A stretch of 64,000 nucleotides of DNA from Escherichia coli (GTDB lineage: Bacteria > Pseudomonadota > Gammaproteobacteria > Enterobacterales > Enterobacteriaceae): the NCBI RefSeq assembly GCF_036507355.1, contig NZ_AP027877.1. One strand, 5' to 3'. Positions 19,181-40,735 of the stretch are shown piece after piece; position 1 is the stretch's first letter; each line of letters starts with the position of its first letter. The notes under the pieces are model-generated. The model was not told the origin of the DNA. It was given only the letters and a program-made list of their open reading frames with translations, and made no database searches. Made by a program: the position numbers and the translations under genes.

Positions 19181-20212
<1,032 letters not shown>

Positions 20213-20330
20213 CTAAAATTAGTCGCTTTTGGCGGTGAATGCTGAATTAAAACGCAGAATTTTGTCCGATAGTGGTATCGGTGTACCATTCGCGCAGAAG
20301 AAAATTCTTAACCTTAATCTGGAATACGCC

Positions 20331-21149
20331 ATGACCACACGCGTGATTGCTCTCGACTTAGACGGCACCTTATTGACCCCGAAAAAGACCTTGCTTCCAT
20401 CATCGATAGAAGCCCTGGCCCGCGCTCGCGAAGCAGGCTATCAATTAATCATCGTCACAGGTCGCCATCACGTCGCTATTCATCCTTTTTATCAGGCGCT
20501 GGCGCTGGATACACCTGCTATTTGCTGTAATGGCACCTATTTGTATGATTATCATGCAAAAACCGTGCTGGAAGCGGACCCAATGCCCGTTAATAAAGCC
20601 CTGCAACTCATTGAGATGCTGAATGAACATCACATTCACGGTCTGATGTATGTGGATGATGCAATGGTCTATGAGCACCCGACCGGGCATGTCATTCGCA
20701 CGTCTAACTGGGCGCAAACCCTGCCGCCGGAACAGCGTCCGACTTTCACACAAGTCGCTTCTCTGGCTGAAACGGCGCAACAAGTTAACGCCGTATGGAA
20801 GTTCGCCCTGACGCACGATGACCTGCCGCAATTGCAGCATTTTGGTAAGCATGTCGAACATGAACTGGGACTGGAGTGTGAATGGTCCTGGCACGATCAG
20901 GTTGATATTGCACGCGGCGGCAACAGCAAAGGTAAACGTTTGACGAAATGGGTTGAGGCGCAAGGCTGGTCGATGGAAAACGTCGTGGCGTTCGGCGATA
21001 ACTTTAATGATATCAGTATGCTGGAGGCCGCTGGTACAGGCGTGGCGATGGGCAATGCCGATGACGCGGTAAAAGCGCGCGCCAACATTGTGATTGGTGA
21101 TAACACCACCGACAGCATTGCCCAGTTCATTTATAGCCACCTGATTTAA
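20331..21149 (+). CDS. ybhA: HAD-family sugar/pyridoxal phosphate phosphatase
   Basis: MTTRVIALDLDGTLL... HAD motif I; ATG at 20331. Confidence 0.9.
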   Translation: MTTRVIALDLDGTLLTPKKTLLPSSIEALARAREAGYQLIIVTGRHHVAIHPFYQALALDTPAICCNGTYLYDYHAKTVLEADPMPVNKALQLIEMLNEHHIHGLMYVDDAMVYEHPTGHVIRTSNWAQTLPPEQRPTFTQVASLAETAQQVNAVWKFALTHDDLPQLQHFGKHVEHELGLECEWSWHDQVDIARGGNSKGKRLTKWVEAQGWSMENVVAFGDNFNDISMLEAAGTGVAMGNADDAVKARANIVIGDNTTDSIAQFIYSHLI

Positions 21150-22208
21150 TCAGGCGGTTATCGACACACTTTTAATTTGCGCGTACAGCCACAGGCCAGG
21201 TTTGATCGCCAGTTCATCCCTGGCCCACGGGCTGATACGCGCCCACAGCGTTTTACCGCCGACTTCCAGCTCCACTTCCACCTGGCCGTTGTCGTCATAA
21301 CTATTAACAACTTTTGCCCGCAATACGTTACGAATGCTGGTTTGCTGCGGCGGTTGTAAAACCAGAGAAACATCAGAAGCCTGAATGCGGATACGTAGCG
21401 CAGCTTGCAGCGGTTCGTCCAGCTTATTGACCCACAAATGCTGATCGCCCAGCGCCAGCGCGGTCATCGCGTAATGCGGATGATGCTCAAGCACCGTCAC
21501 TTTCAGAATGCTACTTTGTTGCTCTTTCGGCAGCCACGGATTCATCACGCTACTACCCCAGACTTCTTCCAGCGCGCCAAAGGCTTTCACCTGACCGTTT
21601 TCCAGTACCATCACTCTGTCTGCCAGATGGAGGATCTCATCCAGCGAATGGCTGACATACAACATCGGAATGTTGATTTCCCGTGTCAGCCGTTGCAGAT
21701 AAGGCAACAGTTCGCGTTTACGCGGAATATCCAGTGACGCCAGCGGTTCATCCAGCAACAGCAATTCCGGTGCTGTCAGCAAAGCCCGACCAATCGCCAC
21801 GCGCTGTTTTTCGCCTCCGGACAGGCTGCCTGGTAAACGGTCAAGCAACGGTTCAATGCCTAAAAGCGCCACCAGCTTATCGAACTGATCGACCATACTT
21901 TTCGACATGCCGTAGCGCAGATTGCCACGCACTTTGTAATGCGGGAACAGCCGCGCATCCTGAAAAACATAGCCAACGCGACGTTTTTCTGGCGTCAGGC
22001 AGATACCTTTATCCGCGTCATTTAGTACCCGACCATTGAGGACAATCCTCCCTTTTTGCGGGCGCGTCAGTCCACTGATGGCGTTAATCAGCGAAGTTTT
22101 TCCGGCACCGGAGACGCCAAAGATAGCAGTGATGCCATTGGCGGGCAGCGTTTCATTAATGGTCAGGCAATGGTTGCCCAACGTCTGGGAAAAATTCAGT
22201 TCCAGCAT
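21150..22208 (-). CDS. modC: Molybdate ABC transporter ATP-binding protein
   Basis: Walker [10 protein letters not shown] and LSGGEKQRV signature; 352 aa. Confidence 0.95.
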
Positions 22209-22210
22209 GA

Positions 22211-22900
22211 TTAGCGCCCCGCCCGTTCACGGCTGATTCTGGCCAGCCATTCTGAAATCAACAGGGAGATCATCGCCAGTGCAATAGAAATAATGCACAG
22301 TCTCGCTGCGCCACTTTCCCCGCCGGGGGTTTGGATCAGGGTATACATGGCAGAAGGAATGGTTCGCGTTTCACCAGGAATGTTCGACACAAAGGTGATG
22401 GTTGCACCAAACTCACCGAGAGAACGAGCAAAAGCCAGTACCGTACCAACAATAATGCCCGGTAAGGTCAGCGGTAACGTGATAGTAAAGAAAACGCGCC
22501 AGCGCCCGGCACCCAGTGTTCTTGCGGCCTGTTCCAGTTTGACATCAACCCCTTCCAGCGCCAGACGAATTGCCCGCACCATCAGCGGAAACGACATGAC
22601 GGCGGCAGCGAGAACCGCGCCGCGCCAGCTAAAGGCGAAGGTAATACCAAACCAGTCATACAGACGTTCACCGATAAATCCGCGCCGTCCCATCGAAACT
22701 AATAATAAGTAACCGACGACCACGGGCGGTAACACCAGCGGTAGATGCAGTACGCTGTCGAGCAGAGCTTTGCCCGGAAACGTGCAACGCACCAGTAACC
22801 AGGCAAAAAAGATCCCAAACGGCAGGCTAAACAGCACAGCCAGGGAAGAAACTTTCAGGCTTAATAAAACTGCCTGCCATTCTGGATCGGTCAGTATCAT
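22211..22900 (-). CDS. modB: Molybdate ABC transporter permease
   Basis: 229-aa permease immediately upstream of modC. Confidence 0.95.
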
Positions 22901-23673
22901 TACTTGGTTGTAAATCCGTAACGTTTAAAGATTTCCGCAGCCTGCGGTCCCTTCAGATAATCATAAAATGCTTTCACTGTCGCATTGTTATGCCCTTCCA
23001 CAACAGCAACCGGATATTCCACTTTTTTATGTGAATCTTCCGGGAAGGTGGCAACCACTTTTACCCCTTTGCTGGCAACTGCGTCAGAACCGTAAACAAT
23101 GCCCAACGGCGCTTCATTGCGTTCGACCAACGCCAGCGCGCCACGAACATCTTCCGCCGGAGCCAGTTTCGGGGAGAGCGTATCCCATGCGCCCAGTTTT
23201 TGCAGTGCTTCTTTTGCATAAATGCCAGCAGGGACATGTTCCGGATCGCCAACCGCGAGGCGACCGCCATTCAGCAGCGAAGTCCAGTTAGTTTTGCTGT
23301 CGATGATGAAATCTTTCTGCTCGCTGGCTTTCGGTGCTACAACGACCAGGCTATTGCCGAGCAGTGTCTGACGCGTAGCTGTATCGATCGCTTTTTTATC
23401 AACCGCATAATCCATCCATTTCTGATCGGCAGAAATAAACAGATCCGCAGGCGCACCCGCTTCAATCTGACGGGCGAGAGTAGATGACGAAGCGAAAGAA
23501 GAAACCACATCCACGCCTTTCTCTTTTTTATACTGCGTAGCAATGTCCTGCATTGCGTTAGTCAGTGATGCGGCGGCGAACACCGTGATTTTCCCTTCAT
23601 CTGCCAGTGCATTGCCAGCAACAGCGAAAGAGAGTGCCGCCCCAGCAAACAAGTTCAACCATTTACGAGCCAT
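22900..23673 (-). CDS. modA: Molybdate-binding periplasmic protein
   Basis: MARKWLNLFAGAALSFAVAGNALA signal peptide; 257 aa. Confidence 0.95.
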   Translation of the reverse strand: MARKWLNLFAGAALSFAVAGNALADEGKITVFAAASLTNAMQDIATQYKKEKGVDVVSSFASSSTLARQIEAGAPADLFISADQKWMDYAVDKKAIDTATRQTLLGNSLVVVAPKASEQKDFIIDSKTNWTSLLNGGRLAVGDPEHVPAGIYAKEALQKLGAWDTLSPKLAPAEDVRGALALVERNEAPLGIVYGSDAVASKGVKVVATFPEDSHKKVEYPVAVVEGHNNATVKAFYDYLKGPQAAEIFKRYGFTTK

Positions 23674-23681
23674 TGGTAACC

Positions 23682-23716
23682 CCTTAATGTAACGTTATGT
23701 AGGCGACAATATAACG
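23682..23716. promoter_or_regulatory. Putative ModE operator in the modABC promoter region
   Basis: taatgtaacgttatgtaggcgacaatataacg, a TAYAT-type repeat region immediately upstream of modA; recalled from the modA operator, not verified. Confidence 0.45.
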
Positions 23717-23839
23717 ACTAACTCGGAATTTTCCCAGCAGTTATTGCTAACCTTTGTGAGGTAGATAAGAAAAAATATCGGCAGGAAAAGCAGGAAGTTG
23801 AGAAAAAGAAAATGCCCGACTAAGCGGGCATTCAGGGAA

Positions 23840-24007
<168 letters not shown>

Positions 24008-24117
24008 TCATGAGACTATTCTAACCGCTAAGCACAGAAAAGCACTCCCCTTTTGTGCGGTCAGCTTTGCGTGGCGTTCGTTTTCCGTCACAATAAGACT
24101 TTTGCCAGGACATTGTT

Positions 24118-24906
24118 ATGCAGGCCGAAATCCTTCTCACCCTTAAGCTCCAACAAAAATTATTCGCCGACCCGCGCCGCATTTCGCTACTAAAACACAT
24201 TGCGCTTTCCGGTTCCATTAGCCAGGGAGCGAAAGATGCCGGTATCAGCTATAAAAGCGCCTGGGATGCCATTAACGAGATGAATCAGTTAAGTGAGCAT
24301 ATTCTGGTCGAGCGCGCAACAGGCGGTAAAGGTGGCGGCGGCGCAGTACTGACCCGCTATGGTCAGCGACTGATTCAGCTCTATGACTTACTGGCGCAAA
24401 TCCAGCAAAAAGCCTTTGATGTGTTAAGTGACGATGACGCCCTGCCGCTGAACAGCCTGCTGGCCGCGATCTCACGTTTTTCACTGCAAACCAGCGCCCG
24501 TAACCAGTGGTTCGGTACCATCACCGCCCGCGATCATGATGACGTTCAACAGCATGTTGATGTCTTACTGGCTGATGGAAAAACACGCCTGAAAGTCGCA
24601 ATTACCGCACAAAGCGGCGCGCGTCTGGGGCTGGATGAAGGCAAAGAAGTGTTGATATTGCTAAAAGCGCCGTGGGTAGGCATTACTCAGGACGAAGCGG
24701 TCGCGCAAAACGCTGACAACCAATTACCGGGTATTATTAGTCATATTGAGCGCGGCGCAGAGCAGTGCGAAGTATTAATGGCGCTACCGGACGGGCAAAC
24801 ACTGTGCGCCACAGTGCCGGTAAATGAAGCGACTTCTCTTCAGCAAGGACAGAATGTCACGGCCTACTTTAATGCCGACAGCGTGATTATCGCCACGCTG
24901 TGCTAA
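24118..24906 (+). CDS. modE: Molybdate-responsive transcriptional regulator
   Basis: 262 aa MQAEILLTLKLQQKLFADPRRISLL... Confidence 0.95.
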   Translation: MQAEILLTLKLQQKLFADPRRISLLKHIALSGSISQGAKDAGISYKSAWDAINEMNQLSEHILVERATGGKGGGGAVLTRYGQRLIQLYDLLAQIQQKAFDVLSDDDALPLNSLLAAISRFSLQTSARNQWFGTITARDHDDVQQHVDVLLADGKTRLKVAITAQSGARLGLDEGKEVLILLKAPWVGITQDEAVAQNADNQLPGIISHIERGAEQCEVLMALPDGQTLCATVPVNEATSLQQGQNVTAYFNADSVIIATLC

Positions 24907-24973
24907 GCGTGTTGACAATTTGTTATGAAACACGTATCCCTGTCAGTAATCGCTGCACAAAATGGGATATAAA

Positions 24974-26446
24974 ATGTCATCGTTGCAAATTTTGCAAGGC
25001 ACGTTTCGTCTTAGCGACACAAAAACGCTGCAATTGCCTCAGCTAACGTTAAACGCGGGTGATAGTTGGGCGTTTGTCGGTTCGAATGGAAGCGGGAAAT
25101 CGGCCCTGGCCCGCGCGCTGGCGGGGGAACTTCCGCTTTTGAAAGGTGAACGGCAAAGCCAGTTTTCCCACATCACTCGTCTCTCCTTCGAGCAATTGCA
25201 AAAGCTCGTCAGCGACGAATGGCAGCGGAATAACACCGATATGCTCGGCCCTGGCGAAGATGACACCGGACGCACTACGGCTGAGATTATTCAGGATAAA
25301 GTAAAGGATGCACCGCGCTGCATGCAACTGGCACAGCAGTTCGGTATTACCCCCCTCCTCGACCGACGCTTTAAATACCTTTCCACTGGCGAGACGCGAA
25401 AAACCCTGCTGTGTCAGGCGCTGATGTCGGAGCCTGACTTGTTGATTCTTGATGAGCCGTTCGATGGCCTGGATGTTGCCTCACGTCAGCAGCTGGCTGA
25501 GCGACTCGCCTCGTTACATCAGTCCGGTATTACTCTGGTACTGGTGCTCAATCGCTTCGATGAGATCCCGGAGTTTGTCCAGTTTGCTGGCGTGCTGGCG
25601 GATTGCACTTTAGCGGAAACTGGCGCTAAAGAGGAACTGCTCCAACAAGCACTCGTCGCGCAACTGGCGCATAGTGAACAGCTTGAAGGTGTGCAACTGC
25701 CGGAGCCGGATGAACCTTCAGCACGTCACGCCTTACCCGCCAACGAACCGCGCATTGTGCTGAATAATGGCGTGGTTTCTTATAACGATCGCCCCATTCT
25801 TAATAACCTTAGCTGGCAGGTGAATCCAGGTGAACACTGGCAAATTGTCGGGCCAAATGGCGCGGGAAAATCGACGTTATTAAGCCTGATTACTGGCGAT
25901 CATCCGCAAGGTTACAGCAACGATTTGACGCTTTTCGGACGACGTCGTGGCAGCGGCGAAACCATCTGGGATATCAAAAAGCATATCGGTTACGTCAGCA
26001 GTAGTTTGCATCTGGATTACCGGGTCAGTACTACTGTGCGTAATGTGATTCTTTCTGGCTATTTCGATTCGATTGGCATTTATCAGGCCGTTTCGGATCG
26101 CCAGCAAAAACTGGTGCAGCAGTGGCTGGATATTCTCGGCATTGATAAACGCACGGCTGACGCTCCGTTCCATAGTCTTTCCTGGGGACAGCAGCGTCTG
26201 GCGCTGATAGTCCGCGCGCTGGTGAAACATCCGACGTTGCTTATTCTCGATGAACCACTACAGGGGCTTGATCCGCTGAATCGCCAGCTTATCCGCCGTT
26301 TTGTTGATGTGCTGATTAGCGAAGGTGAAACGCAATTGTTGTTTGTTTCGCACCACGCTGAAGATGCGCCTGCCTGTATTACCCATCGTCTTGAGTTCGT
26401 GCCGGACGGTGGACTCTATCGCTATGTGCTGACAAAAATATATTGA
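24974..26446 (+). CDS. modF: ABC-type ATPase with two nucleotide-binding domains
   Basis: MSSLQILQGTFRL...; two Walker A motifs (GSNGSGKS, GPNGAGKS). Confidence 0.93.
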   Translation: MSSLQILQGTFRLSDTKTLQLPQLTLNAGDSWAFVGSNGSGKSALARALAGELPLLKGERQSQFSHITRLSFEQLQKLVSDEWQRNNTDMLGPGEDDTGRTTAEIIQDKVKDAPRCMQLAQQFGITPLLDRRFKYLSTGETRKTLLCQALMSEPDLLILDEPFDGLDVASRQQLAERLASLHQSGITLVLVLNRFDEIPEFVQFAGVLADCTLAETGAKEELLQQALVAQLAHSEQLEGVQLPEPDEPSARHALPANEPRIVLNNGVVSYNDRPILNNLSWQVNPGEHWQIVGPNGAGKSTLLSLITGDHPQGYSNDLTLFGRRRGSGETIWDIKKHIGYVSSSLHLDYRVSTTVRNVILSGYFDSIGIYQAVSDRQQKLVQQWLDILGIDKRTADAPFHSLSWGQQRLALIVRALVKHPTLLILDEPLQGLDPLNRQLIRRFVDVLISEGETQLLFVSHHAEDAPACITHRLEFVPDGGLYRYVLTKIY

Positions 26447-26454
26447 GTCGGTAG

Positions 26455-26520
26455 TGCTGACCTTGCCGGAGGCGGCCTAAGCGCCCTCTCCGGCCAACGG
26501 TTCGACGCATGCAGGCATGA
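26455..26520. repeat. REP-like palindromic element
   Basis: gccggaggcggcctaagcgccctctccggcc... between modF and galE. Confidence 0.5.
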
Positions 26521-26613
26521 AACCGCGTCTTTTTTTCAGATAAAAAGCGCAATCATTCATAAACCCTCTGTTTTATAATCACTTAATCGCACATAAAAAA
26601 TGGCTAAACTCTT

Positions 26614-26629
26614 GTGTAAACGATTCCAC
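26614..26629. promoter_or_regulatory. gal operator OE (GalR/GalS site)
   Basis: Exact gtgtaaacgattccac upstream of galE. Confidence 0.85.
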
Positions 26630-26707
26630 TAATTTATTCCATGTCACACTTTTCGCATCTTTGTTATGCTATGGTTATTTCATACCATAAGCCTAATGGA
26701 GCGAATT

Positions 26708-27724
26708 ATGAGAGTTCTGGTTACCGGTGGTAGCGGTTACATTGGAAGTCATACCTGCGTGCAACTACTGCAAAACGGTCATGATGTCATCATTCTTGAT
26801 AACCTCTGTAACAGTAAGCGCAGCGTACTGCCTGTTATCGAGCGTTTAGGCGGCAAACATCCAACGTTTGTTGAAGGCGATATCCGTAACGAAGCGTTGA
26901 TGACCGAGATCCTGCACGATCACGCTATCGACACCGTGATCCACTTCGCCGGGCTGAAAGCCGTTGGCGAATCGGTACAAAAACCGCTGGAATATTACGA
27001 CAACAATGTCAACGGTACTCTGCGCCTGATTAGCGCCATGCGCGCCGCTAACGTCAAAAACTTTATTTTTAGCTCCTCCGCCACCGTTTATGGCGATCAG
27101 CCCAAAATTCCATACGTTGAAAGCTTCCCGACCGGCACACCGCAAAGCCCTTACGGCAAAAGCAAGCTGATGGTGGAACAGATCCTCACCGATCTGCAAA
27201 AAGCCCAGCCGGACTGGAGCATTGCCCTGCTGCGCTACTTCAACCCGGTTGGCGCGCATCCGTCGGGCGATATGGGCGAAGATCCGCAAGGCATTCCGAA
27301 TAACCTGATGCCATACATCGCCCAGGTTGCTGTAGGCCGTCGCGACTCGCTGGCGATTTTTGGTAACGATTATCCGACCGAAGACGGTACTGGCGTACGC
27401 GATTACATCCACGTAATGGATCTGGCGGACGGTCACGTCGTGGCGATGGAAAAACTGGCGAACAAGCCAGGCGTACACATCTACAACCTCGGTGCTGGCG
27501 TAGGCAGCAGCGTGCTGGACGTGGTTAATGCCTTCAGCAAAGCCTGCGGCAAACCGGTTAACTATCATTTTGCACCGCGTCGCGAGGGCGACCTTCCGGC
27601 CTACTGGGCGGACGCCAGCAAAGCCGACCGTGAACTGAACTGGCGCGTAACGCGCACACTCGATGAAATGGCGCAGGACACCTGGCACTGGCAGTCACGC
27701 CATCCACAGGGATATCCCGATTAA
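26708..27724 (+). CDS. galE: UDP-glucose 4-epimerase
   Basis: MRVLVTGGSGYIGSHT... Rossmann motif; 338 aa. Confidence 0.97.
   Translation: MRVLVTGGSGYIGSHTCVQLLQNGHDVIILDNLCNSKRSVLPVIERLGGKHPTFVEGDIRNEALMTEILHDHAIDTVIHFAGLKAVGESVQKPLEYYDNNVNGTLRLISAMRAANVKNFIFSSSATVYGDQPKIPYVESFPTGTPQSPYGKSKLMVEQILTDLQKAQPDWSIALLRYFNPVGAHPSGDMGEDPQGIPNNLMPYIAQVAVGRRDSLAIFGNDYPTEDGTGVRDYIHVMDLADGHVVAMEKLANKPGVHIYNLGAGVGSSVLDVVNAFSKACGKPVNYHFAPRREGDLPAYWADASKADRELNWRVTRTLDEMAQDTWHWQSRHPQGYPD
26727..26742. promoter_or_regulatory. gal operator OI (inside galE)
   Basis: Exact gtggtagcggttacat within the first codons of galE. Confidence 0.85.
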
Positions 27725-27733
27725 GGAACGACC

Positions 27734-28780
27734 ATGACGCAATTTAATCCCGTTGATCATCCACATCGCCGCTACAACCCGCTCACCGGGCAATGGATTC
27801 TGGTTTCACCGCACCGCGCTAAGCGCCCCTGGCAGGGGGCGCAGGAAACGCCAGCCAAACAGGTGTTACCTGCGCACGATCCAGATTGCTTCCTCTGCGC
27901 AGGTAATGTGCGGGTGACAGGCGATAAAAACCCCGATTACACCGGGACTTACGTTTTCACTAATGACTTTGCGGCCTTGATGTCTGACACGCCAGATGCG
28001 CCAGAAAGCAACGATCCTTTGATGCGTTGCCAGAGCGCGCGCGGTACCAGCCGGGTGATCTGCTTTTCACCGGATCACAGTAAAACGCTGCCAGAGCTCA
28101 GTGTTGCGGCATTGACGGAAATCGTCAAAACCTGGCAGGAGCAAACCGCAGAACTGGGGAAAACGTACCCATGGGTGCAGGTCTTTGAAAACAAAGGCGC
28201 GGCGATGGGCTGCTCTAACCCGCATCCGCACGGACAGGTTTGGGCAAATAGCTTCCTGCCTAACGAAGCTGAGCGCGAAGACCGCCTGCAAAAAGAATAT
28301 TTTGCCGAGCAGAAATCACCAATGCTGGTGGATTATGTTCAGCGCGAGCTGGCAGACGGTAGCCGTACCGTTGTCGAAACCGAACACTGGTTAGCCGTAG
28401 TGCCTTACTGGGCTGCCTGGCCGTTCGAAACGCTACTGCTGCCCAAAGCCCACGTTTTACGGATCACCGATTTGACCGACGCCCAGCGCAGCGATCTGGC
28501 GCTGGCGTTGAAAAAGCTGACCAGTCGTTATGACAACCTCTTCCAGTGCTCCTTCCCCTACTCTATGGGCTGGCACGGCGCGCCATTTAATGGCGAAGAG
28601 AATCAACACTGGCAGCTGCACGCGCACTTTTATCCGCCTCTGTTGCGCTCCGCCACCGTACGTAAATTTATGGTTGGTTATGAAATGCTGGCAGAGACCC
28701 AGCGAGACCTGACCGCAGAACAGGCAGCAGAGCGTTTGCGCGCAGTCAGCGATATCCATTTTCGCGAATCCGGAGTGTAA
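27734..28780 (+). CDS. galT: Galactose-1-phosphate uridylyltransferase
   Basis: 348 aa with HPHGQ active-site motif. Confidence 0.97.
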
Positions 28781-34889: not shown

Positions 34890-35605
34890 TGGGACAGCGC
34901 GCGTGAGCCTCTTTCACATGCGCTGTTGATCCACATCCGGCTGCCGTTGAGCGCAATAAAGGTCAGGATGATGTACTCCAGAGACATGGCGTAAACGCCC
35001 TGAAGTGCAAAAATAACGACGCTAATCACGTTAATAATCACCCACAACAGCCAGTTTTCCACATACTTACGCGTCATCAGAATCATTGCCACGATAGATA
35101 ACACCATCATGCATGAATCCCAAAACGGGAAAGCGTCCGGTTGCAGTTCAGGCATCACAACCTGTAATCCTAATGCTTGCATGATCATGACTGCCACGCG
35201 GGTCAAAAATGCAAACACCGGATTGATAAATACCGTCATCAGACCAATCGAAACAACGCAAACCGCCAACCAGCTTAGCGCCTTCGGCAATGGCAACCAG
35301 CGAATTTTCAACTCCGCCTCGTTCTGACTGGTTTGTCGCGACCACGCATACCAACCGTAAATATTCGCGGCAAAGAAAAACACCTGTAATAGCAGGCTGG
35401 CATACAGCTGAATCTGAAAGAAAATAATGCCAAACAAGGTGACGTTGATCAGGCCAAAGAAGTAGTTGCTGATCTTCTCCAGACTGGCAAGGCCAATACA
35501 CAGCAACCCGGCGATCGTGCCTACCGCTTCGATCCATGAGAGATCATAACCGCCTGCTCCTATTGGTATATGTACCAGGATATTCTGCACACTAAAAAAA
35601 TCCAT
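34886..35605 (-). CDS. pnuC: Nicotinamide riboside transporter
   Basis: 239-aa membrane protein directly downstream of nadA. Confidence 0.93.
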
Positions 35606-35642
35606 CTTTCCCCCAAAGCGTAACGTTACGCCTTATTATTCG

Positions 35643-36686
35643 TTATCCACGTAGTGTAGCCGCAAAATCCAGCATACGATTGAGCGGCACCAGCGCCCTC
35701 TCTCGCAGCCTTTCATCAACATGAACCTCGTGATTGCTTCCTTCCTGTTCTAATGCCTCTGCGATGGCCTGAAGGCCATTCATGGCCATCCACGGACAAT
35801 GCGCGCAGCTGCGGCAGGTTGCACCCTCACCTGCGGTTGGTGCTTCCAGTAACTCTTTATCTGGCACCGCCTGCTGCATTTTGTAGAAAATACCCCGATC
35901 GGTTGCCACAATAAGCCTCTGATGTGGCAATGTTTTCGCAGCAGCGATCAGTTGACTGGTGGAACCGACCGCATCCGCCATATCGACAATAGCTTGTGGT
36001 GATTCTGGATGCACCAGTATGGCAGCATCCGGGTATTCTTCTTGCAAGCGGGTTAACGCCTGAGTCTTAAATTCATCATGCACAATGCAGGCCCCCTGCC
36101 AGCATAAAATGTCTGCGCCCGTCTGTTTTTGCACGTAACGCCCCAGGTGTTTGTCGGGTGCCCAGATGATTTTTTCACCCAAACTATCCAGATGATCAAT
36201 AAGTTCGACGGCAATGCTTGAAGTTACCACCCAATCTGCCCGCGCTTTTACCGCAGCAGAAGTGTTGGCGTAGACGACGACAGTATGATCGGGATGGGCA
36301 TCGCAAAATGCGTTAAATTCTTCAACAGGGCAGCCGAGATCCAGTGAACATTCAGCCTGAAGTGTCGGCATCAGAATTGTTTTTTCCGGACTGAGAATTT
36401 TGGCGGTTTCTCCCATAAATCTCACCCCAGCGACTAACAACGTAGAAGCGGGATGCTTTGCACCGAAGCGCGCCATTTCCAGAGAATCAGAAATACAGCC
36501 ACCGGTTTCTTCTGCCAGTTGTTGAATTTCGGGATCGGTATAGTAATGGGCAACCATCACCGCATTACGTTCTTTTAGCAGACGTTTTATCTTCTCGCGG
36601 TAATACGCTTTTTCATCAATGCTTAACGGCGTCGGCTTCGGGGGGAAAGGATAAATCGCCGTGTCTGGATCAAACATCACGCTCAT
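35643..36686 (-). CDS. nadA: Quinolinate synthase A
   Basis: 347 aa [29 protein letters not shown]... Confidence 0.96.
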
Positions 36687-37087
36687 CTTACCATCTCGTT
36701 TTACAGGCTTAACGTTAAAACCGACATAAGCGTCATATTCGCTGTTATCGGTGTAATTTGTTTTATATACTAAACAAGATAGTCGAATGGTGGGGAAAAG
36801 TCACTCGAATTACGCCTAATGTGCAGGATGCGTCATTTTACGCCTAATTCCACCGACATAGAGTTGCTTGCACAGTAAGCTCTGACTATGTCATCAGGTT
36901 TACAAAGTTAAATTGAGGGATGCCTGAATAGCAAAAAAGCGTCTTTAGGGCGCTTTTTTACATTGGTGGGTCGTGCAGGATGACTCGCTTCGCTCGCCCT
37001 TCGGGCCGTCGCCGCGAGCGGCTCCGTTGTTTCGCTGCGCTCAACTCGAACCTGCTGCAGGTTCGAATCTTTGAATATCTCAGATAG

Positions 37088-37116
37088 CAAAAAAGCGCCT
37101 TTAGGGCGCTTTTTTA
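37088..37116 (-). terminator. Rho-independent terminator after the last tRNA-Lys
   Basis: aaaaaagcgcc-ttta-gggcgctttttt hairpin flanked by A/T runs; a second near-identical copy lies at about 36930-36960. Confidence 0.7.
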
Positions 37117-37119
37117 CAT

Positions 37120-37195
37120 TGGTGGGTCGTGCAGGATTCGAACCTGCGACCAATTGATTAAAAGTCAACTGCTCTACCAACTGAGCTAACGACCC
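37120..37195 (-). tRNA. lysQ: tRNA-Lys (UUU)
   Basis: Exact reverse complement of GGGTCGTTAGCTCAGTTGGTAGAGCAGTTGACTTTTAATC...CCA; 76 nt. Confidence 0.93.
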
Positions 37196-37228
37196 CTTGC
37201 GGGATTATGCTGCTTTAATCATTCAGGA

Positions 37229-37304
37229 TGGTGGGTCGTGCAGGATTCGAACCTGCGACCAATTGATTAAAAGTCAACTGCTCTACCAACTGAGCTAACG
37301 ACCC
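37229..37304 (-). tRNA. lysZ: tRNA-Lys (UUU)
   Basis: 76-nt copy identical to the other tRNA-Lys genes. Confidence 0.93.
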
Positions 37305-37450
37305 ATACGGGTGTTACCTGAAAGATTTCTACTCGGAACCAATCTTTAAAATTGGTGGGTCGTGCAGGATGACTCGCTTCGCTCGCCCTACGGGCCGTTG
37401 CTGGCGCAACGTTATCCTTCACGCTTAACATCTGAGTTTGATGTTAAAAT

Positions 37451-37526
37451 TGGTGGGTCGTGCAGGATTCGAACCTGCGACCAATTGATTAAAAGTCAAC
37501 TGCTCTACCAACTGAGCTAACGACCC
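37451..37526 (-). tRNA. lysY: tRNA-Lys (UUU)
   Basis: 76-nt copy identical to the other tRNA-Lys genes. Confidence 0.93.
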
Positions 37527-37529
37527 GAG

Positions 37530-37605
37530 TGGTGGGTGATGACGGGATCGAACCGCCGACCCCCTCCTTGTAAGGGAGGTGCTCTCCCAGCTGAGCTAAT
37601 CACCC
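37530..37605 (-). tRNA. valZ: tRNA-Val (UAC)
   Basis: Reverse complement of GGGTGATTAGCTCAGCTGGGAGAGCACCTCCCTTACAAGGAGG...CCA. Confidence 0.93.
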
Positions 37606-37656
37606 GATACTGCGCTGGATACTACAAACTACTTCCACCGAACCCACCGTAATTAG

Positions 37657-37732
37657 TGGTGGGTCGTGCAGGATTCGAACCTGCGACCAATTGATTAAAA
37701 GTCAACTGCTCTACCAACTGAGCTAACGACCC
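37657..37732 (-). tRNA. lysW: tRNA-Lys (UUU)
   Basis: 76-nt copy identical to the other tRNA-Lys genes. Confidence 0.93.
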
Positions 37733-37734
37733 GG

Positions 37735-37810
37735 TGGTGGGTGATGACGGGATCGAACCGCCGACCCCCTCCTTGTAAGGGAGGTGCTCTCCCAGCTGAG
37801 CTAATCACCC
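37735..37810 (-). tRNA. valT: tRNA-Val (UAC)
   Basis: 76-nt tRNA-Val copy. Confidence 0.93.
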
Positions 37811-37845
37811 GATACTACGCTGGATACTACAACTAACTAGGTTAG

Positions 37846-37921
37846 TGGTGGGTCGTGCAGGATTCGAACCTGCGACCAATTGATTAAAAGTCAACTGCTC
37901 TACCAACTGAGCTAACGACCC
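37846..37921 (-). tRNA. lysT: tRNA-Lys (UUU)
   Basis: 76-nt tRNA-Lys copy, first gene of the operon. Confidence 0.93.
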
Positions 37922-38085
37922 ACTTTTTCGTTGCTTTCGGTTTGTTTGATATCCCGTGGCAACGGCGGCATATATTACTGATTTCAGACTTGAGCGCAAC
38001 AAAAATTTCGATGTAGATCACTCAACTGCTTATGATTCGCACGACACGACCAGAAATAATGCGACTTCTGGTCGTGTGTTATGCA

Positions 38086-38877
38086 TTACATCGCGTTCAG
38101 ACGTTTTTGTGCCTGTTTAGCGCCATCAGTACCAGGGTATTTACTGATAACCTGCTGGTATACGGCTTTCGCTTTTGCGGTGTCACCTTTGTCCTGCATG
38201 ATGACGCCGACTTTAAACATCGCATCTGCAGCCTTTGGTGACTTCGGATAGTTTTTCACTACCGAAGCAAAATAGTACGCCGCATCATCTTTTTTACCCT
38301 TGTTGTAGTTTAACTGACCCAGCCAATAATTGGCGTTTGGCAGGTAAGTTGAATCAGGGTAATTTTTGATGAAATTCTGAAATGCCACCATTGCGTCATC
38401 CTGGCGGGATTTATCCTGCACCAGCGCAATAGCTGCATTGTAATCCGTGTTTGCATCACCGCTTTTCACCGGCGCGCCAGCATTCGCAGTACCAGCATCA
38501 GCTGTCGGCGTCGTTGATGCCGCCGCACCGCTTTGATCACCGCTGGTTGATTGCGCCGCTGCACCACCGCTGCTGAGGCTGTCGATCTGCAACAGGATCT
38601 GCTTTTGCCGCTCCACGACCTGATTCAGTTGATACTGATTTTCCTGAATCTGACCACGCAGGGAATCAATATCGGATTGATTATCAGAGAGTTGTTGCTG
38701 GAGTTGGGTTAAAAGCTGGCTGTGAGCATTAGAAATACGCTCAAGTTGAGTGACGCGGTCTTCGACCGAGCCTGAGCCGACACTACTGATTGGTGCCTGA
38801 GCAAAAGCGGCCCAGGGGGCCGCTATACCAACCAGTAACGACAGACTCAATAGTTGATGTCTGAAGTTACTGCTCAT
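38086..38877 (-). CDS. cpoB: Cell-division coordinator CpoB (YbgF), TPR protein
   Basis: 263 aa with signal peptide, coiled coil and C-terminal TPR repeats; downstream of pal. Confidence 0.93.
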   Translation of the reverse strand: MSSNFRHQLLSLSLLVGIAAPWAAFAQAPISSVGSGSVEDRVTQLERISNAHSQLLTQLQQQLSDNQSDIDSLRGQIQENQYQLNQVVERQKQILLQIDSLSSGGAAAQSTSGDQSGAAASTTPTADAGTANAGAPVKSGDANTDYNAAIALVQDKSRQDDAMVAFQNFIKNYPDSTYLPNANYWLGQLNYNKGKKDDAAYYFASVVKNYPKSPKAADAMFKVGVIMQDKGDTAKAKAVYQQVISKYPGTDGAKQAQKRLNAM

Positions 38878-38886
38878 GCAATTCTC

Positions 38887-39432
<546 letters not shown>

Positions 39433-39442
39433 TTAATTATTA

Positions 39443-40735
39443 TCACAGATACGGCGACCAGGCAGGGAATTTGACCTGTCCATCAGTTGCCGGAAGACGC
39501 GCTTTGAAACGCCCATCTGTAGAAACCAAATTCAGCACGGATCCCATCCCCTGAGAAGAGCTGTAGATTACCATAGTGCCGTTAGGTGCCAGACTTGGCG
39601 TTTCATCCAGGAACGTGGACGACAGAACTTGTACGCCTCCCGTTGCCAGATCTTGTTTGGCAATGTGCTGCTGCCCACCGTTGGAGCTGACCATTACCAT
39701 AAATTTACCGTCGCTGCTGACATCCGCATCCTGGTTCTGCGAACCTTCCCAGGTAATACGTTGTGGCGCACCGCCGTTGATATTCACTTTATAAACCTGT
39801 GGACGACCGGCCTGGTCAGAAGTAAATGCCAGGTTCTGGCTGTCCGGGAACCAGGTCGGTTCGGTATTGTTACTGCGACCATCAGTCACCTGGCGGATCT
39901 GACCAGAAGCCAAATCCATTACGTACAGGTTCAGGCTACCGGTTTTCGACAAGGCGAATGCCAGTTTGCTGCCGTCTGGCGAGAATGCAGGCGCACCGTT
40001 GTGACGCGGGAATGAAGCCACCTGACGTACAGCGCCGTTTGCCAGCGTTTGGATAACCAGCGCGGAACGACCGCTTTCGAAGGTCACATAAGCCAGTTTA
40101 GAACCGTCTGGTGACCACGCCGGGGACATCAGCGGCTGTGGTGAACGGTGAACGACAAACTGGTTGTAACCGTCATAGTCAGATACGCGCAGTTCATACG
40201 GGAACTGACCGCCGTTGGTCTGAACAACGTAGGCAATACGGGTACGGAACGCACCTTTAATACCGGTCAGTTTTTCAAACACTTCATCACTGGCGGTATG
40301 ACCAGCATAACGCAGCCACTGCTTGTTCACTTTGTACGCGTTCTGAGCAAGTACAGTACCCGGTGCGCCGCCAGTGTCAACAAGTTGATAAGCAACATTG
40401 TAAGAACCATCCGGATTCGGAGTGACCTGACCGACAACTACAGCGTCAATACCCAGCGCGGACCATGCAGCTGGTTGTACTTCCTGCGCACTACCCGGCT
40501 GCTGTGGCAGACGAGCGCGATCTAACGGATTAAATTTACCGCTGTTACGCAAGTCGGCAGCAACGATGCCGCCAATATCTTCAGGTGCCGCACCAGGGCC
40601 CGCCCACTGGAAAGGAACAACTCCAATAGGACGACCGGAATCTACACCGCTGTCGATCACAATGCGGACTTCAGCATGAAGAACTGATGCCCACAATATG
40701 AGAAAACCAAATGCTACTCGTAATGCCTGCTTCAT
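39443..40735 (-). CDS. tolB: Tol-Pal system periplasmic protein TolB
   Basis: [21 protein letters not shown] signal peptide and beta-propeller; 430 aa. Confidence 0.96.

Follow-up and report, generated by a model that had tools for sequence, protein, structure and literature searches.

Two tRNA-linked repeats of the RtT family in the lysT operon of an Escherichia coli genome

The tRNA operon and its orphan 3′ ends

In the 64-kb stretch of Escherichia coli DNA analysed here (the window), a lysT-type tRNA operon is encoded on the minus strand, with cpoB upstream and nadA downstream. A preliminary description of this DNA had reported seven intact tRNA genes, five for lysine and two for valine. 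All seven (37120-37921) are called by ARAGORN, in the order Lys-Val-Lys-Val-Lys-Lys-Lys, and the Rfam tRNA model matches all of them with 65.9-79.2 bits. In an alignment, the operon is collinear with lysT-valT-lysW-valZ-lysY-lysZ-lysQ of E. coli K-12. Besides the genes, the operon carries two repeat elements, here designated TLR-1 and TLR-2, and two terminator hairpins, T1 and T2. In the direction of transcription, the features are the following:

37846-37921, minus strand: tRNA-Lys (ARAGORN)
37735-37810, minus strand: tRNA-Val (ARAGORN)
37657-37732, minus strand: tRNA-Lys (ARAGORN)
37530-37605, minus strand: tRNA-Val (ARAGORN)
37451-37526, minus strand: tRNA-Lys (ARAGORN)
37353-37450, minus strand: TLR-1, short form, 98 nt (Rfam RtT RF00391, K-12 orthology)
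37229-37304, minus strand: tRNA-Lys (ARAGORN)
37120-37195, minus strand: tRNA-Lys (ARAGORN)
37089-37115, minus strand: terminator hairpin T1
36964-37088, minus strand: TLR-2, long form, 125 nt between T1 and T2 (Rfam RtT, K-12 orthology)
36933-36959, minus strand: terminator hairpin T2

Both repeat elements end in a copy of a tRNA terminus. Specifically, the 18-mer TGGTGGGTCGTGCAGGAT (plus strand; sense form ATCCTGCACGACCCACCA) is the 3′ end of tRNA-Lys, tRNA positions 59-76, and has seven exact matches in the window, against about 0.01 expected by chance. Five of these lie inside the tRNA-Lys genes and the other two, at 36964-36981 and 37353-37370, are orphans. In the sense (minus) strand, each orphan is preceded by a shared segment, GACTCGCTTCGCTCGCCCTWCGGGCCGT, which is found exactly twice (36982-37009 and 37371-37398; 0 expected by chance), and in a repeat search the orphan pair extends over 57 nt with 93% identity. 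The preliminary description had placed two tRNA-Lys tail fragments at 36962-36983 and 37353-37377, with a common segment adjoining both. The fragments are real, their coordinates are right within a few bases, and the common segment is borne out by the exact duplicate and by the longer repeat.

The orphans were considered as tRNA pseudogenes, and this possibility was rejected: ARAGORN and the Rfam tRNA model call the seven intact genes only, with no degraded cloverleaf. In fact, the tRNA sequence contained in the orphans amounts to 18 nt, plus a 10-nt half T arm in TLR-2. Two other kinds of Rfam match at the locus, a weak one to YrlA (Y-RNA-like; 44 bits at 37144-37284, below the gathering score of 69) and those to Plastid-ycf2, were likewise dismissed as side effects of the tRNA genes.

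Assignment to the RtT family and comparison with K-12

With near certainty, both orphans are the tails of tRNA-linked repeats (TLRs), which form the Rfam family RtT (RF00391). Repeats of this kind were first seen in tyrT (Egan and Landy 1978, PMC8144298), and Rudd's catalogue of 1999 lists 22 of them in K-12, distributed over ten loci that have between one and five each (PMC8144298). They are defined by a 3′ end of 18-19 bp that is the same as that of the upstream tRNA or rRNA gene (PMC8144298). In the window, the last 18 nt of both elements are identical to the 3′ end of the upstream gene. Moreover, both elements lie downstream of a tRNA-Lys on the same (minus) strand, TLR-2 being separated from tRNA-Lys 37120-37195 by a terminator.

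Alignment with the K-12 lysT operon and an Rfam scan had been named in the preliminary description as the appropriate checks, and both are informative. The scan matches the two fragments to RtT, and not to the tRNA model, above the gathering score of 45 and over the full model (1-130), with 54.4 bits for TLR-1 (37353-37519) and 51.5 bits for TLR-2 (36964-37095); the matches were also recovered in a whole-window Rfam scan at the gathering threshold. As for the quality of these matches, the covariance alignment of TLR-1 takes its 5′ part from the upstream tRNA via a 44-nt insertion, and in TLR-2 cmscan marks the base pairs of the outer stem as non-standard.

The alignment, in turn, makes both elements orthologous to K-12 copies. 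The K-12 operon contains five RtT matches, located after lysT, lysW, lysY and lysZ and distal to lysQ. The window is 98.7% identical to it, except that three stretches (100, 98 and 99 bp) are missing; each of these corresponds to one RtT unit and has the 18-nt repeat as its exact boundary. Consequently, the two operons share the TLRs after lysY and lysQ, their 18-nt tail and their core, whereas those after lysT, lysW and lysZ are present in K-12 only, which has five copies to the two of the window. TLR-1 is the ortholog of the TLR between lysY and lysZ and differs from it at 1 of 98 nt, the first base after the upstream CCA, with core and tail identical. TLR-2 is the ortholog of the element distal to lysQ, with three mismatches; in RefSeq E. 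coli genomes with the same layout, PGAP labels this ortholog ‘RtT sRNA’. In other words, TLR-1 and TLR-2 are of an already known kind, catalogued, found by Rfam and, for the distal copy, annotated in RefSeq.

Structure of the internal element

TLR-1 begins immediately past the CCA of the third tRNA-Lys (37451-37526) and ends with a CCA of its own. Its RNA is predicted to fold with -32.7 kcal/mol, z = -3.55 relative to shuffled sequences. The parts of the element, with core coordinates read from the sequence, are:

37414-37422, minus strand: 5′ strand of the outer stem, GUGAAGGAU
37376-37422, minus strand: structured core (folds and reading of the sequence)
37396-37411, minus strand: hairpin H1, CGUUGC-GCCA-GCAACG, as listed in the centroid fold only
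37385-37395, minus strand: hairpin H2, GCCC-GUA-GGGC, in the MFE and centroid folds
37376-37382, minus strand: mini-hairpin H3, GC-GAA-GC, read from the sequence
37353-37370, minus strand: tail, 18-nt tRNA-Lys 3′-end copy ATCCTGCACGACCCACCA, an exact match to the upstream tRNA's 3′ end

The outer stem, which is formed by GUGAAGGAU and the tail segment AUCCUGCAC and contains one A-G mismatch, is present in both the MFE and the centroid fold.

The terminal element and its two terminators

The end of the operon has the layout lysQ, T1, TLR-2, T2. The preliminary description had recognised two near-identical terminator hairpins and placed both after the last tRNA. Their near-identity is confirmed; only the first, however, lies directly behind that gene, and the second follows the distal orphan. 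The features concerned are:

37089-37115, minus strand: T1, AAAAAAGCGCC-CUAAA-GGCGCUUUUUU, fold -19.1 kcal/mol, z = -5.75
37046-37066, minus strand: perfect 10-bp palindrome UCGAACCUGC-A-GCAGGUUCGA in TLR-2, read from the sequence
36964-36981, minus strand: tail of TLR-2, 18-nt tRNA-Lys 3′-end copy, exact match
36933-36959, minus strand: T2, fold -12.3 kcal/mol, z = -5.25

T1 begins 5 nt past the CCA of the last tRNA-Lys and is identical in K-12. T2 is a copy of T1 in which one G-to-A change in the 3′ arm (GGCGC to GACGC) makes the stem weaker, and it is by this one base change that it differs from T2 of K-12. Both hairpins sit inside a 54-nt direct repeat with 98% identity. They have the form of a Rho-independent terminator, GCGCC-CUAAA-GGCGC followed by UUUUUU, and are predicted to terminate transcription. 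A pattern-based terminator scanner listed neither T1 nor T2, probably because the upstream A-run pairs with the U-run, and folding was used instead. TLR-2, T1 and the tail of lysQ together make up a repeat unit of 156 bp. As this unit is present only about 1.35 times, Tandem Repeats Finder reported nothing at the locus.

The structure of TLR-2 departs from that of the other family members in that their outer stem is absent from it: only 5 contiguous complementary bases are found, and the fold is no better than shuffles (z = -1.25). The dominant hairpin in both the MFE and the centroid fold is the palindrome, whose 3′ arm GCAGGUUCGA has the sequence of the 5′ side of the T stem of tRNA-Lys, continued by the first five bases of the T loop.

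A reading frame also crosses the core of TLR-2. At 36958-37044 (minus strand) lies an Arg-rich frame of 28 aa, MSAAKQRSRSRRRPEGRAKRVILHDPPM, with a TTG start and no ATG start. It parallels tpr, the gene annotated as ‘protamine-like protein’ inside the K-12 tyrT TLR, and is probably the mere translation of a GC-rich hairpin core.

Variation in copy number among E. coli strains

Twelve E. coli operons, a small and non-random sample, were read over the cpoB-nadA interval. BLAST coverage joins pieces across indels, so the arrangements were scored by direct reading. The presence of a TLR was scored by spacer length, as exact-motif counts miss variants with diverged tails. In the 12 operons, each of the four internal spacers has two lengths, according to whether the TLR is absent or present: 35/135, 51/149, 48/146 and 33/132 nt. 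Similarly, the last tRNA lies 277, 433 or 589 nt from nadA, which corresponds to no, one or two copies of the 156-bp unit. All five TLR sites of this sample thus vary in clean steps of 98-100 bp or 156 bp, and the total per operon ranges from 0 (strain S22EC) to 5 (K-12). The number of tRNA genes is also variable, with 4-5 Lys and 1-2 Val. The pattern of the window (absent, absent, present, absent, one distal) is common to O145:H28 RM12581 and CUVET24.

Individual strains add further arrangements. GPEC859 carries two tandem 156-bp terminal units, SMN152SH1 has lost one Val-Lys pair, and 53_142304 has lost one Lys gene together with the distal unit. In CUVET24 and SMN152SH1, the distance between the last tRNA and nadA is 29 bp shorter.

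Some TLR tails have diverged from the tRNA sequence (e.g., ATCCTGCACGACACACCA) and are therefore less tightly held than the tRNA gene. The preliminary description had stated that exact conservation in all relatives, as ordinary processed spacer sequence, would speak against its interpretation. Conservation goes only part of this way: the positions are the same in K-12 and the internal core is identical, but every site is polymorphic. As to the direction of change, Citrobacter werkmanii and Pluralibacter gergoviae both have a TLR after tRNA-Lys, followed by the valT-side spacer, and the empty first spacer of the window accordingly represents a loss. With two of five sites occupied, the window has lost TLR copies rather than gained a scar.

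TLR cores in other genera

A species-representative genome collection was scanned with the core pattern GCRACGRCCCGNAGGGYGA, which gives a lower bound for the taxonomic range. About half of the matches listed are chance occurrences in GC-rich coding DNA or belong to an unrelated repeat of Alcanivorax. The others include TLR-like cores in many Enterobacterales and also in Gilliamella, in Marinobacterium and in metagenome-assembled genomes (MAGs) of Nevskiales and Ectothiorhodospiraceae. Where a tRNA can be identified upstream, the 18-19 nt after the core equal that tRNA's own 3′ end in nearly all matches listed, and the tail matches its host even where the tRNA is a lineage-specific variant. 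The host tRNAs of the listed cores are Lys, Tyr, Arg-ACG, Arg-CCG, Pro-CGG and Pro-UGG, and the break between core and tail always falls at tRNA position 58/59 among these matches.

Host specificity is not confined to the tail. In Tyr, Arg, Pro and several Lys elements, a strand that can pair with the host-specific tail lies at a fixed distance upstream of the core and forms the 5′ side of the outer stem. The pairs are GGGGAAGGAT/ATCCTTCCCC for Tyr, GGGAGGAT/ATCCTCCC for Arg, AGAGGAT/ATCCTCT for Pro and GCCTGGAGGG/CCCTCCGGGC for Arg-CCG. Within the core, hairpin H3 is kept through at least 12 stem sequences across 37 variants, mostly with a three-base GNA loop; examples are GC, GAC/GTC, GGC/GCC, GGCC/GGCC, GCCAC/GTGGC, AGCGC/GCGCT, GCAT/ATGC and GGAGC/GCTCC. 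The stem has an average length of 3.57, compared with 2.76 +/- 0.11 for shuffled sequences. A covariation count gives no signal for H1 (CGTTGC-NNNN-GCAACG) and H2 (GCCC-GNA-GGGC), because these hairpins are nearly invariant, partly since the search pattern fixed them.

TLR-like cores with 5S rRNA 3′-end tails were found by the same pattern at four loci of Superficieibacter electus and Siccibacter colletis. The arrangement of the 5S pieces, GAGAGTAGG, core, AACTGCCAGGCATCAAATTA, places the core where the 3′ strand of the terminal helix begins. These cores match the type of rrA, rrB and rrF, the 5S-linked TLRs of E. coli discussed below, and extend that type to other genera.

In Alcanivorax sp. 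24, a dispersed and tandem repeat of 74-76 nt, present on many contigs, carries the GCGACGGCCCGNAGGGTGA hairpin motif of the TLR core. It does not lie beside tRNA genes and has no tRNA-like tail, and it appears to be a REP-like family in its own right, with one small hairpin in common.

Relation to the rtT and 5S-linked repeats

Two groups of described TLRs offer points of comparison. In particular, rtT/RtT, the 178-bp repeats of tyrT-tyrV, have a core (AACGTTGC..GCAACGRCCCGAAGGGYGA..) homologous to that of the window TLRs, an 18-19-nt tail from the upstream tRNA, a tandem arrangement distal to the last tRNA and, in tpr, an Arg-rich reading frame across the core, like TLR-2. The tail and outer stem of rtT (GGGGAAGGAT/ATCCTTCCCC) are specific to tRNA-Tyr, whereas those of the window elements are specific to Lys. 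Furthermore, the tyrT copies have a clean 10-bp outer stem, in contrast to the one mismatch of TLR-1 and the missing outer stem of TLR-2. An early claim that tied rtT RNA to the stringent response and to recovery from amino-acid starvation was later withdrawn (PMC8144298).

The second group consists of rrA, rrB and rrF, which follow 5S rRNA genes, between the dual terminators T1 and T2 of rrnA, rrnB and rrnD (PMC8144298). Their layout of gene, T1, TLR and T2 is that of TLR-2, and the 18-bp 3′-end copies are spaced 150 bp apart in rrnB and 156 bp in lysQ-T1-TLR-T2. Their core is related to that of the window, as the 5S-linked copies were found by the same core pattern. Their RNAs are made when transcription reads through T1, and in vitro they bind both Hfq and CsrA (PMC8144298). 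For their 3′ end, the authors suggest that the repeat directs an RNase E cut, as for 5S rRNA (PMC8144298). The upstream gene differs, and so does the predicted binding: for the other 19 TLRs, those of tRNA operons, the CsrA-binding predictor gave values <0.01, that is, they are predicted not to bind CsrA (PMC8144298). A discrete processed RNA has been reported for RrB and, among the TLRs of tRNA operons, only for rtT of tyrT.

Origin and fate of the repeats

The reading that we favour, with a probability of about 80%, is that the window fragments are lysT-operon TLRs which behave as dispensable spacers, co-transcribed with the tRNAs and processed out, and whose copy number changes by recombination between repeats. 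Both elements are situated within the operon and on its transcribed strand, single copies can be dispensed with, and gain or loss affects whole units that have direct repeats at their ends. How the elements are transcribed and cut, and how stable their RNA is, we infer, and confidence in processing and neutrality is lower than in family identity. TLR-1 would always be transcribed, as part of the polycistronic tRNA precursor, and TLR-2 only when the polymerase reads through T1. During tRNA maturation the elements would be cut out, their tRNA-like 3′ end recreating the 3′-processing context of a real tRNA, in TLR-1 also through pairing with the upstream complementary strand. The 18-nt tails, the tRNA-Lys genes (76 nt each and identical) and the terminal unit of 156 bp are all direct repeats, between which slippage or unequal recombination could delete or duplicate whole units; the reduced set of the window would be the product of such losses.

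Other accounts of how the repeats arose explain less. The preliminary description read the locus as a recombination or duplication scar, that is, as partial tRNA-Lys copies of a one-off origin in this operon and without family identity. Part of this stands, as tRNA 3′ ends and terminators are duplicated, the locus structure varies between strains and recombination does take place there. A scar peculiar to this operon is nevertheless very unlikely, given that K-12 has these elements at the corresponding sites, that a curated covariance model derived from other loci matches them, that their core also follows other tRNAs and 5S rRNA in many genera and that the family is already catalogued (PMC8144298); as the sole explanation, it is ruled out by the RtT matches and the cross-genus conservation. 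A mobile or templated element that hits the 3′ terminal hairpin of stable RNAs (tRNA position 58/59 or the 5S equivalent) and duplicates an 18-19-nt target would account for the joining of one core to at least six tRNA species and to 5S rRNA, always with the same break in the tRNA. Such an element would also fit the 5′ half of the host T arm that precedes the core in the long forms, as in a T-loop insert, and the clean presence or absence bounded by a direct repeat. The indels, however, are explained equally well by deletion between direct repeats, and gene conversion by the neighbouring gene would likewise make the tail match its host tRNA. In addition, no transposase or integrase is associated with the repeats, presence is ancestral at one site according to the two outgroup genera, and the cores, judged by eye from an alignment, appear to fall into groups that follow tRNA type across genera, as expected of old loci inherited vertically. 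This origin is accordingly given little credence. The same 18 nt, starting in the T loop, might also be leftover attachment-site junctions of integrated phages or islands, and the size is right, since integrases that target tRNA genes typically duplicate a segment of such length. Yet no more than 98-156 bp separate the repeats, what lies in between is a conserved TLR core and a terminator rather than phage DNA, with short chance-type ORFs and neither integrase nor cargo, and up to five copies are found in one operon, so that attachment sites are extremely improbable.

A different question is whether the elements are functional small RNAs, TLR-2 being a low-level reporter or regulator made only by read-through of T1 and linked to transcription of the tRNA operon, as has been proposed for RrA, RrB and RrF, and TLR-1 a stable processed RNA with a separate role. 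The mirrored layouts of lysQ-T1-TLR-T2 and 5S-T1-rrB-T2 of rrnB, the core conserved across genera with compensatory changes in H3, and the better-than-shuffled fold of TLR-1 (z = -3.55) are all in line with such a role. On the opposite side, for every site there is a natural strain that does without it, and one strain is free of TLRs; T2 of the window is weakened by mutation, and TLR-2 has no outer stem. Published work points the same way, with the predicted CsrA binding of tRNA-operon TLRs below 0.01, the retraction of the stringent-response claim for rtT and the statement that the family has no known function (Stenum et al. 2021, PMC8144298). A small-RNA function is hence unlikely, though less so than the origins weighed above.

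Significance

The recombining, dispensable repeats of our preferred reading carry little significance for the window itself, because the family is catalogued, the copies are detected by Rfam and the distal one is annotated in RefSeq. What deserves attention is a contrast: the TLR core is conserved over several orders of Gammaproteobacteria, yet copies come and go within E. coli. Conservation of this breadth, together with the compensatory changes in H3, argues for some selected role and fits a dispensable spacer badly. The compensatory pattern could, on the other hand, reflect the upkeep of a palindrome at the DNA level and not an RNA function. TLRs have been without an accepted function since 1978 (PMC8144298), and the contrast between conservation and turnover, combined with natural strains that have 0 to 5 copies, makes their function cheaply testable.

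One speculative possibility, rather improbable at present, is that TLRs are selected structured RNAs that mimic tRNA 3′ ends, or compete with them, at the maturation machinery, with the terminal copy dosed by T1 read-through and thereby coupled to the output of the operon. It is suggested by the host-specific outer stem, which presents a tRNA-like 3′ end, and by hairpins kept through compensatory change. In a more radical variant, the core would spread to new stable-RNA genes by a targeted mechanism.

The surrounding region

Among 5,426 complete RefSeq E. coli genomes, the best identity is 98.7% for the tol-pal/nadA region that contains the operon (35500-39500) and 99.3% for the gal-mod region (20000-28000). 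Upstream of the tRNA operon, at 38848-38986 on the minus strand, the CpoB/ybgF intercistronic RNA thermometer (RF02782) is matched with 142.2 bits, against a gathering score of 51.
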